This document shows, piece by piece, positions 50,628-56,990 of a stretch of DNA of 64,000 nt. Both the position numbers and the translations under genes were made by a program. Under the pieces are notes generated by a model that saw only the letters and a program-made list of their open reading frames with translations, was not told the DNA's origin and made no database searches. The stretch covers positions 4,331,418 to 4,395,417 of the forward strand of contig AP024676.1 in the NCBI GenBank assembly GCA_025998955.1, given 5' to 3'. Position 1 is the stretch's first letter. Each line of letters starts with the position of its first letter. Source of the DNA: Candidatus Roseilinea sp. (lineage in GTDB: Bacteria > Chloroflexota > Anaerolineae > J036 > Brachytrichaceae).

Positions 50628-51377
50628 ATGAACGTGCGGGCTCGATTCAACCAGGCTTTCCGGTTGGTGGTCGCCTGCGGCTTGGCCATGCTTTTCGCTG
50701 CGCCGGTGCGCGCCGAACGCGGCGTGGCGCTGGGCGCGCCGGCCGGTCGCGCCGCAACGGCGAACATCGGCTTCGGCGACGTGTGGAACACCAACTTCGG
50801 CATGCTGATGCTGCAGGCCAGCGATGCGTCGGGCGTTCGCTTCACAGGTGTGATGACCGACGCCGGCAACCCCCGCGCGCGTGGCATCGTCACCGGCACG
50901 CTGGCCAACGATGGACGTCTAAGCGGCGTCTGGCGTCTGGGTGACAGGCGTGGCGTGTTCTTCAACCTGACGCTGGACGCCAAAGGCGAGACATTTACCG
51001 GATCGGCCAGCGGATATACCACCTGGTGCGGCGCACGACTGGGTAAGTCGCTGCCGCCGGGCTGCGCCTTCTCCGGCCAGTGGACGATCGAGCTGGACGG
51101 CGCCGGCGCCGGCACGGCCACGCTCACGCAAACCGGCACATCTGTCTCCGGCAGCTACAGCACCAAGCTGGCCGGCGGCCGGCTGACCGGCTCGGTGACC
51201 TTCGTGAACGGGCTGCCGGTGCTCAACGGCAAATGGAGCACCGCGCGCAGCGGCGGCCTGTTCAAGGCCTATCTGACCGGTTTCGACGCCCGCCGGTTCC
51301 AAGGCAACTTCGACGGCAAACTCGCGTTCTGTGGCTGGCGGAGCGGCGGAGCGAAGCCGGACACCTGCTTCAAGTGA
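50628..51377 (+). CDS. Secreted protein with two tandem beta-rich repeats
   Basis: Signal peptide ending VRA/E; two ~100-aa Gly/aromatic repeats each ending (W/F)CGxRxGxxxPxxC. Confidence 0.7.
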   Translation: MNVRARFNQAFRLVVACGLAMLFAAPVRAERGVALGAPAGRAATANIGFGDVWNTNFGMLMLQASDASGVRFTGVMTDAGNPRARGIVTGTLANDGRLSGVWRLGDRRGVFFNLTLDAKGETFTGSASGYTTWCGARLGKSLPPGCAFSGQWTIELDGAGAGTATLTQTGTSVSGSYSTKLAGGRLTGSVTFVNGLPVLNGKWSTARSGGLFKAYLTGFDARRFQGNFDGKLAFCGWRSGGAKPDTCFK

Positions 51378-52654
51378 TGCCGGCCTCTGTTGTAGCCGCT
51401 TCCACGTTGCGCGAAGCGCTGGCTTCGGCCTTCAGCTTGGCCGAGCTGAAGATCGCCCTGGCCGATTTGGGGGTGAACCCGGAGCGTGTGCCGCAATACG
51501 ATGGTGGCATCGAGCTGTGGGCATTGGAGATCGTCGCTTACTTCCAGCGTCGAGGCCGGCTGGACGAACTCATCGCCTATTGCGCCAAGGAACGCCCCGA
51601 TATCCCCTGGCAACAGTTGGCCGAGGCACATCGTCAGGCGCTGGCTCGGCTAAGCTCAGCAGAGCACACCGCAGACGACGCATTTCACGACATCCAGCGC
51701 GGCATCGGCGCGCTGGAGAAGCTGTCTCGCGATCCGAATGCCCGGCCGCTGATTCTGCGCATACGCGACGATCTACAAGAAGCTGGCGATCACATCATGC
51801 GCCTGAGCAACTACAAACATCTGCATGACGAATTCCAAGAGCTACAGGTGCGCTATAGCGTGATCGAACGCGATTGTCACAGTGCGGAGACGGATGACAC
51901 AGCTTGGAACACGTTGGCCGAATACCTGACACAGTGGGACGGCATCATGAGCCGGCTGCTGGCGATCGCTGCGCAGCCCGGCCTCGCCCCAAGCGACGTG
52001 GCGTGGGCAGCGCGCCTGGCGCAAATTCAGCGCAACGTGCGCGACGCATTGGAGACACAGACGGTTGCGCCGTTGGCAAATATACTGCCCATGATGCGCC
52101 GGCTGTTGGAGCGCGAGCCGTCGCTGGTCAACGCCAAGATCTTCGAAGTGGTGCGCGGCATGCTGCAACGCAGCGTGATCCCGCCGCTGATCGAGCTGCG
52201 CGAGGCGCTGGCGCAACGGCGGGTGGACGGCGCCAGCTTGGATGAATTCGCGCGTGGCATCGAATCGCTCCAGGGCCTGCGCGACCGGCTGCAGATGCTG
52301 GTGACCGAGCACGACCGATGGCAGCAGATGGAAGACGAACTCAACCCCATCCTCGGCAATCTGAGTCGCAGCCCAGACGTGCTGGCGCAAAGCTGGCCCT
52401 TCGTGAGCAGCCTGGCCCACGAGATGCTCGACGGTGTGCAAGAGGACTGGGCGGTCGCGATCCTGGTGCTCGACGCGCGGATTCGAGAGCGGCTGGCGGC
52501 CAACGACGCGCCGCGCGCCCGACCGCTCGTCTATCAATTTCACAGCCGGGTGAGCAACCGCTTCAGAATTGTGGACGACGACCTATTGAAGGTCGTGGTG
52601 GAGCTGCAAAAAATCGGCGATAGCCTTCAGCGCTTCTTGAGAGGAATTTTGTGA
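51377..52654 (+). CDS. Effector-associated domain (EAD7-like) fused to an uncharacterised helical domain
   Basis: LREALASAFSLAELKIALADLGV...EIVAYFQRRGRLDELIAYCAKERPDIPW resembles EAD7; start overlaps upstream stop (TGATG). Confidence 0.72.
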   Translation: MPASVVAASTLREALASAFSLAELKIALADLGVNPERVPQYDGGIELWALEIVAYFQRRGRLDELIAYCAKERPDIPWQQLAEAHRQALARLSSAEHTADDAFHDIQRGIGALEKLSRDPNARPLILRIRDDLQEAGDHIMRLSNYKHLHDEFQELQVRYSVIERDCHSAETDDTAWNTLAEYLTQWDGIMSRLLAIAAQPGLAPSDVAWAARLAQIQRNVRDALETQTVAPLANILPMMRRLLEREPSLVNAKIFEVVRGMLQRSVIPPLIELREALAQRRVDGASLDEFARGIESLQGLRDRLQMLVTEHDRWQQMEDELNPILGNLSRSPDVLAQSWPFVSSLAHEMLDGVQEDWAVAILVLDARIRERLAANDAPRARPLVYQFHSRVSNRFRIVDDDLLKVVVELQKIGDSLQRFLRGIL

Positions 52655-55700: not shown

Positions 55701-56990
55701 CCCTTCGTGAGCCAGCCGATCGGCGAGCTGCGCGGGCACGAGCAGACCATCCGCAGCGCCGAGTTCTCCTCCGACGGCAGGCTGATCGTCATGGGGAGTG
55801 ACGATGGCACGGCGCGCGTGTGGAACATCGAGGCCTTCCAGGCTGCGCCGATGGAACAACGGATAGCCCAACAGCAGTGGAACGTCGAGATTCGACGGCC
55901 GACGCAAGTGCTGCGCGAGCATCGCGACGCCGTATTCGGCGTGCATTTCTCGCCCGACGGCGGCAGCGTAGTCACAGCAGGCGCCGATGGCATCGCGTTG
56001 GTATGGAACCTACAACCCGGCGCCGTAGTCGTCGCACTGCAGGGGCACACCGGCAGCGTGAACAGCGCTCAGTTCTCGCCTGACGGTATGTTCATCCTGA
56101 CGGCGAGCGACGACCGCACGGCGCGCATGTGGGATTTGGCCGGCCAGATCGTCCTCACGCTCACCAACCGCGTCGCCCCGACGCTGGCGGATGACGCCCT
56201 AGGCGCGCCCTCGCCGGCTGAAGGGCCGCCTGCGGTGATCAACGAAGCGAAATTCTCGCCCGACGGGAGGCGCGTGGCGCTGGCCGGCCTGAATAGCACG
56301 GCCGTTATCAGCAACTTGCAAAGCGACCTGCCGGCGACGCCGCTGACCGGGCATCGCGGGCCGGTGCTGAGCGTGACTTTCTCGCCGGACGGCCGGCACG
56401 TGGCTACAGCCAGTGAGGATCGCACGTGCCGGGTGTGGGATGCGACGAGCGGCCGGCCGATTTACGTGCTGGAAGGTCATGACGACAAGGTCGAAGGTGT
56501 GACGTTCTCGCCGGATGGCGAGTTTCTGGCTTCGGCCGGTGCCGACGGCACCGTGAACCTGTGGGATGCGCTCGGCAACTCGGCAGGCGTGCTGCGCGGG
56601 CATACGAATGTGGTATGGAGCGTCGCCTTCTCGCCTGATGGCAGCAGGCTGGTCACGGCCAGCGAAGATGGCACGGCGCGCATCTGGGATGCGTTGAGCG
56701 GCGAAGAGCAACTGGTCATCAGTGGCCATGCCTCGGGGGTGAACAGCGCCACCTTCTCGCCGGATGGGCGCATCGTGGCGACTGCCGGCTCGGATCGCTC
56801 CGTGCGCCTGTGGGACGCCCAAACTGGTCGCCCGCTGGCGAACTTCGCCTTGCATGCCGATCGCGTGTTGGGCGTGGCTTTCTCGCCGGACGGCCGCTAC
56901 ATCGTCACCGCCTCTGCCGACGGCACGGCCTTGGTGCTCATCTATCGGCTGGAAGATTTGCTGGCGTTGGCTTTGAATCTGGTGCAGTGA
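52707..56990 (+). CDS. nSTAND1-type NTPase with novel N-terminal domain, TM helix and 14 WD40 repeats
   Basis: CPYRGLDAF, Walker A GSSGSGKSS, Walker B VVLIVDQFEE, LPLLQFTL, HEALVRNW; hydrophobic AVLLVGALALSTALAFIAWL; 14 GH...FSPDG...WD units. Confidence 0.92.
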   Translation: MTSQSPLGATPYATLPELRAEHARLLAERPRPGEESDASEFLQQVAEFIRRGAATGAYIDDEEDRRGVQSLLDFWANVLYRANGQKGVQIETPDPTLADFDFSLAPELPDEPCPYRGLDAFREANSAFFFGRERLVDELLARLQHERLLALVGSSGSGKSSVVFGGLLPRLKQGMGAGWRYLVMVPGENPLANLARAAVSLVPQEQANNPGLGVQSQIIFAEEGFRRDPNYLAGLARETGDSPVVLIVDQFEETFTLCTDLEARSAFADQLIGLAQATDLPHRVILTMRTDFVDNVARLPRLKPLFDQAQVDVRAMGIEELRAAIEKPAEKVGLKFDEGIVSNLIEAILGEQAGLPLLQFTLLKLWEKRKRNRITADVYREVGDPRRALGRSAEAFYEGLIYQNQVTAKLILMKMVRPVLEGGREFTSNRIPLASVFAMGEPKDRVEDVLRRLIFEERLVKLSGVETPDPNVSLAELASRRGPLGEVPQIEVAHEALVRNWPRLAAWLDEARVELRKRFVLTQAAREWIASADATGGERDANLLLRGRLLEEAEAYPDLDAGEREFVQASRDAALAEERAKEEARRREIEQARALAEAERLRAEEQQRANARLRRRAVLLVGALALSTALAFIAWLSAQQAATSAVRANIASTQAVLQQATAQAEAINALQANATAQAAKSTAQAAKVLAEANESQAEAVAEQARDLKATADAAALLAQSAERIAESRRLAAEANTLLNVSVLESLRVAVAAITTTLPEETPEEAINALQRVLELPLPRLRLSGHSGPVVAAQFSPDGKLIATAGTDGVVRVWDRSSGELRTQIEHNSPLIGLQFSPDGALILTTDNDGVARIWATQPAAGLDMSRPMTTLQGTGDALNSAAFSPDGALVVTAGVDQEARIWDVRSSQVITALRGGHTAAINTVAFSPDGRLIVTASDDGTARIWDALTGELLQPTLGGTGGPPLKVARFSPDGAMILTGGDDGVGRLWSATTFTDAAPFVSQPIGELRGHEQTIRSAEFSSDGRLIVMGSDDGTARVWNIEAFQAAPMEQRIAQQQWNVEIRRPTQVLREHRDAVFGVHFSPDGGSVVTAGADGIALVWNLQPGAVVVALQGHTGSVNSAQFSPDGMFILTASDDRTARMWDLAGQIVLTLTNRVAPTLADDALGAPSPAEGPPAVINEAKFSPDGRRVALAGLNSTAVISNLQSDLPATPLTGHRGPVLSVTFSPDGRHVATASEDRTCRVWDATSGRPIYVLEGHDDKVEGVTFSPDGEFLASAGADGTVNLWDALGNSAGVLRGHTNVVWSVAFSPDGSRLVTASEDGTARIWDALSGEEQLVISGHASGVNSATFSPDGRIVATAGSDRSVRLWDAQTGRPLANFALHADRVLGVAFSPDGRYIVTASADGTALVLIYRLEDLLALALNLVQ

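Follow-up and report, generated by a model that had tools for sequence, protein, structure and literature searches.

How does an NLR-like sensor pass its signal to an output that is encoded on a separate chain? This question is raised by two adjacent genes of Candidatus Roseilinea sp., whose genome is a single contig of 4.67 Mb. The stretch analysed (64,000 nucleotides (nt), C1:4331418-4395417, hereafter the window) has a GC content of ~65%, and close homologues of its genes carry the label Anaerolineae. Both genes were found on the + strand. Gene 1 (51377..52654, 425 amino acids (aa)) encodes an EAD7 domain followed by a helical domain that we call HEL; gene 2 (52707..56990, 1427 aa) encodes an N-terminal domain (N-dom), an nSTAND1 NTPase, a transmembrane (TM) helix, a stalk and fourteen WD40 repeats. 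A first-pass annotation had described them as a two-component module in which an unrecognised N-terminal domain of the second protein recruits the helical first protein, with an unknown output. We found that the two genes are a co-conserved NLR-like module, and that HEL and N-dom are two domain families absent from Pfam. We propose that the pair acts as an NLR-like transmembrane switch whose output adaptor is dedicated to it and encoded by a gene of its own, a reading to which we assign a probability of roughly 0.55.

Co-conservation of HEL and N-dom

The N-dom profile alone was searched against 301 genomes of the window's phylum, and four further genomes were found (loci in other genomes are labelled with L). 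In all four, a gene of 450-790 aa lies immediately before the N-dom-nSTAND1 gene and overlaps it by 4 nt; its product begins with a CHAT domain in three cases (L019, L021 and L022) and with EAD7 in one (L020). All four upstream proteins end in a ~325-aa domain homologous to residues 100-425 of gene 1, with E values of 6e-21 to 1e-48 in BLASTP (1e-48 for the EAD7 protein of L020, at best 6e-37 for the CHAT proteins) and of 1e-29 to 1e-68 with the hidden Markov model (HMM) of the family. A P-loop-anchored alignment scan of species-representative genomes yielded 40 nSTAND1-like loci; N-dom was present only in the one from a Leptolyngbyaceae cyanobacterium (L023), and HEL was encoded upstream there only, behind EAD10. 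Contig look-ups of five further N-dom matches showed HEL immediately upstream in 5/5. Taken together, HEL lies directly upstream, with an overlap of 1-4 nt, at 10/10 loci selected by N-dom (L019-L023, L068-L072), and within 6 kb at 0/39 other nSTAND1-like loci (L024-L062).

The same pattern was observed at the level of whole genomes, searched with a first-look filter that scores few candidates per genome. N-dom was detected in 5 of the 301 genomes of the phylum and HEL in the same 5, and N-dom in 3 of 401 cyanobacterial genomes and HEL in the same 3, so that both occur together in 8/702 genomes and neither occurs alone in any. Word-indexed searches with HEL hardly reached beyond the close family and overlooked relatives that are easy to detect with HMMER; the HEL survey was therefore based on the whole-genome searches and on the contig look-ups of N-dom matches. 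The word-indexed search returned only ten close homologues of gene 1, each with an nSTAND1-WD40 gene downstream of it wherever the contig permits. The comparison of gene neighbourhoods that the first-pass annotation had proposed as a check thus came out in favour of the pair (10/10 versus 0/39 loci), and its idea that the N-terminal domain is tied to the helical partner was borne out by this strict co-occurrence, which suggests a physical contact between N-dom and HEL.

HEL and the modules fused to it

The EAD7-like N-terminus of gene 1 that had been noticed from the sequence is a match to EAD7 (PF19960, 36.4 bits versus a cut-off of 32) over residues 11-74 (51407..51598, +), and the EAD1 model is also above its cut-off (26.4 versus 24.2 bits). 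This small all-helical adaptor consists of four short helices in the AlphaFold2 (AF2) model, in which the ~325 aa that follow are likewise all-helical, as first described, and form a long bundle (predicted local distance difference test score (pLDDT) 86, predicted template-modelling score (pTM) 0.75). HEL (residues 99-425; 51671..52651, +) gave zero matches in Pfam, NCBIfam and the Protein Data Bank (PDB), and PADLOC returned for gene 1 only a marginal match to LmuB (16.8 bits, E 5e-4, residues 60-174). The domain is an internal duplication of two ~160-aa halves (hhalign probability 84%, E 8e-6), encoded at 51671-52162 and 52163-52651. In the half-to-half alignment, K-x-x-H-D-x-x-Q of the first half falls onto E-H-D-R-W-Q of the second and W210 onto W358, so that the motifs K147/H150/D151 and H312/D313/Q316 stand at equivalent positions of the two repeats. 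The residues invariant in the family are K147, H150, D151, Y160, W210, N252, R260, H312, Q316, W340, W358 and F396. A catalytic motif of the HEPN or HD type was considered and dropped, since the family does not keep the Arg that a possible Rx5H would require. Foldseek searches of PDB and BFVD gave no significant neighbour of HEL; the best was the McpZ sensor domain (E 0.078, template-modelling score 0.25), and no score among the weak neighbours exceeded 0.28.

The module in front of HEL varies: three proteins have CHAT, several lineages have EAD7, and EAD10 and an unknown domain were each seen once. In the maximum-likelihood tree of HEL, one clade (99/98 support) mixes EAD10-HEL, two CHAT-HEL proteins and EAD7-HEL, which argues that the N-terminal module has been exchanged on a constant scaffold. 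The His and Cys motifs of CHAT are intact in the three proteins that carry it (L019, L021 and L022), and the EAD7 of gene 1 occupies the place where these relatives have the CHAT caspase-like protease, or EAD10. HEL would accordingly be seen as the constant coupling scaffold of the STAND N-domain and not as an orphan effector; this reverses the roles that had been implied for gene 1, with HEL as the constant coupling module and EAD7 as the exchangeable output module. The sensor end of gene 2 homologues varies as well, with WD40 repeats in most loci, an FGE-sulfatase domain in L020 and no sensor in two cyanobacterial variants. The cassette stands in differing genomic contexts in L001, L003 and L068 and is spread sporadically (8/702 genomes); such a changing context and sporadic spread suggest an accessory conflict module.

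In these two cyanobacterial variants, L066:3527-10625 and L067:4011-11856 (genomes G569 and G332), a GAF-GAF histidine kinase gene stands between the HEL and N-dom genes. The HEL protein of this type has an unrecognised 320-aa N-terminus, and the nSTAND1 protein lacks sensor repeats and is extended by ~150 residues ahead of N-dom. HEL in L067 appears to be split over two or three frames and may be degraded.

The output, which the first-pass annotation had left unknown, can be narrowed down. The genome encodes ~10 EAD7 domains, that of gene 1 and nine others: two copies of EAD7-TIR-FGE-sulfatase (EAD7-TIR-FGS; C1:822583-824154 and 366332-368197), a caspase C14-EAD7 protein with an intact dyad (C1:2403155-2404399), an EAD7-TPR protein (C1:937108-937788) whose EAD7 is the closest to that of gene 1 (46% identity), three EAD7-TM proteins and a further two in which EAD7 is C-terminal. 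Fusion to an NTPase was seen in none of the nine, and none of their genes has a STAND gene beside it. By the published principle of EAD coupling (PMC7159879), some of these nine proteins, among them the TIR and caspase proteins, are the likely recruits of the EAD7 of gene 1. The caspase-EAD7 protein would then restore in trans what the relatives hold in cis as CHAT-HEL.

Two sites of EAD7 genes in this set deserve mention. At C1:1665680-1667865 (-), an EAD7 paralogue with an unrecognised N-domain and a C-terminal EAD7 is encoded directly downstream of a 512-aa protein that starts MKVEAIRLINFMAFEDTGWIELRPITLLFGRNSSG and resembles an ABC/OLD-type ATPase; this may be a second system that uses EAD7. 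At C1:818199-824154, an EAD7-TM-X gene and an EAD7-TIR-FGS gene lie at most 6 kb apart and adjoin apparent cas genes (a Cas4-like C-terminus at ~815.7 kb).

The NTPase protein and the neighbouring genes

Residues 1-113 of gene 2 (52707..53045, +) gave no Pfam match even at E<=10, in agreement with the description of this domain as unrecognised; it is not peculiar to the locus, as 840 cluster representatives were found in an exhaustive HMMER search with these residues at E<=1e-3, and 192 at E<=1e-10. The matches lie nearly all at the N-terminus of long proteins, and among the long ones that were scanned nSTAND1 was present in 43/43 and WD40 repeats in 25/43. The copy number of N-dom in this genome is one. 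An AF2 model built from a 31-sequence alignment shows a three-helix bundle (H15-28, H38-58 and H62-83, spanning nt 52746-52958; pLDDT 86.3, pTM 0.78), in which one helix bears QSLLDxW and which is followed by a conserved extended linker, TLADFDxxLAPELPDxxC. Foldseek indicated only a non-significant resemblance to MIT-like three-helix domains (E about 1), and sequence and profile searches of PDB were empty. The possibility that N-dom is a divergent EAD7, which would pair homotypically, was rejected: hhalign against the alignment of genomic EAD7 domains gave a probability of 0.4%, and no Pfam EAD model matched at E<=10.

The rest of gene 2 agreed with its initial description as an intact Walker A/B NTPase with a TM helix, an Ala-rich segment and 14 WD40 repeats. 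The nSTAND1 module (PF20703, 350.1 bits versus a cut-off of 27.1) covers residues 114-532 (53046..54302, +), with Walker A, GSSGSGKSS, at nt 53163-53189 and Walker B, VLIVDQFEE, at nt 53439-53465, both on columns that are invariant in the 43-member family alignment. An Arg-rich flank and a single TM helix (RRRAVLLVGALALSTALAFIAWL, residues 614-636; 54546..54614, +) come next; the helix contains a single strongly hydrophobic 19-mer at residues 618-636 (Kyte-Doolittle 2.35) preceded by RLRRR. An equivalent segment follows the nSTAND1 module in 79/81 long family members. The 15 flanking residues hold on average 4.7 K+R before the helix versus 2.0 after it, and K+R is higher before it in 73/81 (Wilcoxon p 7e-14); no second TM segment was detected. 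Because the NTPase must be cytoplasmic, this positive-inside bias predicts an extracytoplasmic location for the Ala/Gln-rich helical stalk (residues 637-770; 54615..55016, +), which was read from the sequence and placed by the TM topology, and for the WD40 repeats (residues 771-1427; 55017..56987, +). The latter reach 445 bits with Pfam in 13 stretches and contain exactly 14 units of the FSPDG type, that is, two seven-bladed propellers. Among orthologues the NTPase is the best-conserved part (73% identity to L003, 60% to L068), whereas the stalk and the WD40 repeats are the least conserved, at ~40% (WD40 40% versus NTPase 73% to L003). PADLOC left the NTPase unmatched, and its only match in gene 2 was that of the WD40 repeats to HEAT-ARM_XIII.

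A second protein with the order nSTAND1-TM-Ala-rich stalk-WD40 is encoded at C1:2469029-2471551 (-), in an 840-aa frame with an N-terminus of ~30 aa. This paralogue has no N-dom and no adjoining HEL gene, so the TM-WD40 architecture also occurs without the N-dom/HEL output module.

The claim that the module has two components held for the co-conserved NLR-like pair and proved too narrow for the locus, as the unit is larger than two genes: in this lineage, a kinase and a secreted protein are conserved with the pair. The first gene of this lineage-specific four-gene cassette (49114..50484, +) encodes a Ser/Thr protein kinase of 456 aa, with a cytoplasmic kinase domain (Pfam Pkinase, 142.7 bits, residues 7-254) and, as read from the sequence, one TM helix from about residue 310 and a Pro-rich extracytoplasmic tail; its PADLOC matches to PD-T4-6 reflect generic kinase similarity. 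The second (50628..51377, +, with an alternative start at 50604) encodes a secreted beta-rich protein of ~249 aa (SEC), whose signal peptide is MNVRARFNQAFRLVVACGLAMLFAAPVRA|E. SEC consists of two similar beta-rich halves with the pattern G-x-W...L-T-Q-x-G-x-x-V-S-G...L-x-G-x-W, each closed by a Cys pair (WCGARLGKSLPPGC and FCGWRSGGAKPDTC), and no match to it was found in sequence and profile searches of Pfam and PDB. A TM Ser/Thr kinase and a ~250-aa signal-peptide protein precede the pair in the window, in L001/L002 (85% identity) and in L068, the kinase gene holding an equivalent position in each; in L068, N-dom is 54% identical to that of the window and the flanks are unrelated. In L003/L004 the secreted-protein gene at least is present, and SEC homologues stand directly 5' of the gene 1 homologues in L001, L003 and L068. 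SEC is single-copy in the genome, is missing from the other HEL/N-dom loci and was found only in the EAD7-HEL clade that also carries the kinase. Both proteins fit the extracytoplasmic sensing side, where they probably act, or else they modulate the switch.

Within the cassette, the ATG of gene 1 at 51377 overlaps the stop codon of SEC as TGATG. Two long open reading frames (ORFs), listed at 50043-51377 and 51080-52654, reach too far at the N-terminus, as happens in GC-rich DNA; the surplus parts are window 50043-50627 and 51080-51376, and the genes proper start at ~50628 and 51377. A scan for promoters and terminators gave no signal that defines an operon and is uninformative in DNA of 65% GC. 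Directly upstream of the kinase gene lie two tandem PDZ-S41 (Ctp-type) peptidase genes (46165-47496 and 47584-48804, -), which are not kept beside the cassette in L001 or L068. Downstream, a minus-strand ORF of 285 aa at 57052-57909 without a family match competes with a + strand ORF at 57310-57924. The syntenic site of L001 and L005 has a + strand gene for a 204-aa uracil-DNA glycosylase, with UbiA and UbiE genes after it; of the two ORFs in the window, the one on the + strand is therefore probably the real gene.

Proposed mechanism, alternatives and known systems

In the proposed switch, gene 2 would sit in the membrane with nSTAND1 and N-dom in the cytoplasm and with the Ala-rich stalk and the double WD40 propeller facing outward. 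A ligand would be bound by the propellers, and its binding would drive the NTP-dependent oligomerisation of nSTAND1, as in other STAND/NLR proteins. N-dom and its conserved linker would hold the HEL domain of the partner encoded upstream, so that oligomerisation would cluster whatever is fused before HEL. In most relatives the clustered module would be an intact CHAT caspase-like protease, activated by proximity as Apaf-1 does with caspase-9. In this genome EAD7 would replace the protease and would recruit EAD7-tagged proteins through homotypic EAD7-EAD7 contacts, the candidates being the two EAD7-TIR-FGS proteins, caspase(C14)-EAD7, EAD7-TPR, the three EAD7-TM proteins and the two others. The module would have a role in conflict or programmed cell death.

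Several observations weigh against this proposal. The bacterial STAND defence proteins characterised so far all respond to phage proteins in the cytosol (PMC13581612); an extracytoplasmic sensor is unlike any of theirs, and this weakens a simple anti-phage reading. The whole family is known from sequence alone, and the evidence for a contact between N-dom and HEL is their co-occurrence only. The HEL alignment used for the search of the own phylum held sequences from the five positive Chloroflexota genomes, so that in the 301 genomes only the absence of HEL elsewhere is informative, and genomes within a phylum are phylogenetically related, non-independent samples. In the window, genes 1 and 2 are separated by a gap of 52 nt, whereas their counterparts overlap in relatives. 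As for the output, identity between the gene 1 EAD7 and the nine genomic copies is only 23-46%, with the closest on the TPR protein and that of the caspase the most distant, so that each of the nine is no more than a candidate partner, and no other EAD7 gene adjoins the cassette.

With a tentative weight, the locus can also be viewed as an "outside-in" analogue of death receptors, in which the WD40 repeats of a single-pass STAND/NLR protein would read an extracellular or cell-wall cue, and EAD7, as a Death-like hub reached through N-dom and HEL, would activate TIR and caspase effectors in trans. If true, this would be the first bacterial NLR-like system that senses outside the cytoplasm and uses a two-step adaptor chain.

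It is more doubtful that the cassette serves envelope or developmental signalling of filamentous bacteria and not immunity or cell death, with the WD40 repeats, the secreted protein and the TM kinase sensing a surface or neighbour-cell cue that STAND relays to EAD7-linked regulators. The predicted extracytoplasmic sensor, the TM Ser/Thr kinase and secreted protein co-conserved in the lineage, the GAF-GAF histidine kinase between the HEL and N-dom genes of two cyanobacterial loci and the NTPase left without a PADLOC match would suit such a role. However, the swappable CHAT/EAD7/EAD10 outputs and the WD40/FGE-sulfatase sensors belong to the vocabulary of conflict systems (PMC7159879, PMC8195603), TIR and caspase domains are found among the EAD7 partners in the genome, and a rare and patchy module (8/702 genomes) in a shifting context does not resemble a core developmental pathway.

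We consider it unlikely that HEL is itself the effector, a membrane-active or polymerising bundle set off by STAND, with CHAT or EAD as its activator or regulator in the manner of a caspase-like protease and gasdermin. HEL contains no hydrophobic segment, and gene 1 as a whole no TM segment; a pure adaptor (EAD7 or EAD10) before HEL is hard to explain if HEL is the effector, and a docking module would be expected to keep just such a strict one-to-one association with a small bundle at the N-terminus of the NTPase. This outweighs the points that speak for an effector, namely that HEL is the conserved part of the partner, that its invariant polar residues K147, H150, D151, H312 and Q316 could be functional, and that a CHAT-HEL fusion would place the protease beside a possible substrate. 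The weak Foldseek neighbours do include components of alpha-pore-forming toxins (AhlB and SmhB), IpaD and designed membrane-lytic bundles, but all of them are non-significant (best E 0.078, template-modelling score at most 0.28). Finally, an incidental adjacency of two proteins that work independently, which the 52-nt gap and the lack of a promoter or terminator signal defining an operon would allow, is contradicted by the strict co-occurrence in 702 genomes and at 10/10 loci and by the 1-4 nt overlap at those loci, and is very improbable.

The transmembrane switch with a separate output adaptor can be compared with systems that have been described. Bacterial STAND/NLR systems of known mechanism, such as Avs and bNACHT, each consist of one cytosolic protein, which recognises phage proteins in the cytoplasm and sets off the effector fused to it (PMC13581612). 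They share with our locus a tripartite logic, in which a sensor leads to NTPase oligomerisation and this to effector activation. Gene 2 differs from them in its TM helix, its predicted external sensor, its output on a separate chain and an NTPase that matches no known defence-system model in PADLOC; it is thus neither cytosolic throughout, as predicted, nor fused to its effector. If the prediction of an external sensor is true, NLR-type switches would be able to monitor the cell surface or neighbouring cells. The NLR-associated amyloid signalling pairs (BASS) likewise have an effector gene immediately 5' of an NLR-like gene and couple through the NLR N-terminus, by means of a short motif repeated in both proteins (bioRxiv 10.1101/2020.01.06.895854). 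In our pair, by contrast, both coupling modules are folded helical domains; an amyloid-like motif common to gene 1 and the STAND N-terminus was looked for and was not found, the best E value in BLASTP of gene 1 against STAND residues 1-113 being 1.3.

The effector-associated constant components EACC1, a short domain with one TM segment whose gene lies 5' of that for a caspase protein, and EACC2, an alpha+beta domain (PMC7159879; PMC8195603), resemble HEL as constant, non-catalytic components that are tied to a caspase-type protease while variable modules are swapped. HEL differs in being a duplicated all-helical bundle of 325 aa that pairs with an nSTAND1 N-domain. Membership of gene 1 in EACC1 was rejected, as it encodes a 325-aa helical bundle with no TM segment and the 3' gene encodes an NTPase without a caspase.

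The EAD-coupled STAND/nSTAND1 conflict systems of multicellular bacteria (Kaur, Burroughs, Iyer, Aravind 2020, PMC7159879; Kaur et al. 2021, PMC8195603) resemble the locus in several respects: nSTAND1 with C-terminal WD40 or FGE-sulfatase sensors, EAD7 as a terminal adaptor, one EAD that recurs many times in the genome in fusions to TIR, caspase, TM and repeat domains, and a patchy distribution in Chloroflexota and Cyanobacteriota. In the published scheme, the same EAD is present on the NTPase core and on the effector, and the coupling is homotypic (PMC7159879; PMC8195603). Here, in contrast, N-dom matches no EAD model and the genomic EAD7 genes encode no NTPase; the NTPase bears N-dom, which is paired with an unrelated domain, HEL, on a separate chain that carries an EAD or a protease. 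Since N-dom is not an EAD7, the coupling would be heterotypic. A keyword search of the main text of the relevant papers, including PMC7159879 and PMC8195603, returned neither N-dom nor HEL, which their supplementary data may name. What appears to be new is this heterotypic N-dom/HEL link within a known type of EAD/STAND conflict system. The HEL/N-dom pair offers a clean and testable prediction of a protein-protein interaction, and the split design would let evolution exchange the output (caspase-like protease, EAD7 or EAD10) on a single docking pair.

The comparison reaches beyond bacteria. Like the Apaf-1 apoptosome (CARD-NB-ARC-WD40 with CARD-caspase-9), the module combines a STAND NTPase, a double WD40 propeller and a small helical adaptor that would bring in a caspase-type protease, and its proximity-activation logic is mirrored by the CHAT-HEL relatives and by caspase-EAD7 acting in trans. 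It differs from Apaf-1 in three ways: the adaptor belongs to a second chain, which a heterotypic N-dom:HEL contact would hold in place; the NTPase is nSTAND1 and not an AP-ATPase; and the predicted position of the sensor is outside the membrane and not in the cytosol. The EAD7 version, which would tie one sensor to TIR, caspase and membrane proteins encoded across the genome, may be the closest bacterial parallel so far to the adaptor chains of Apaf-1/CARD or of death receptors.

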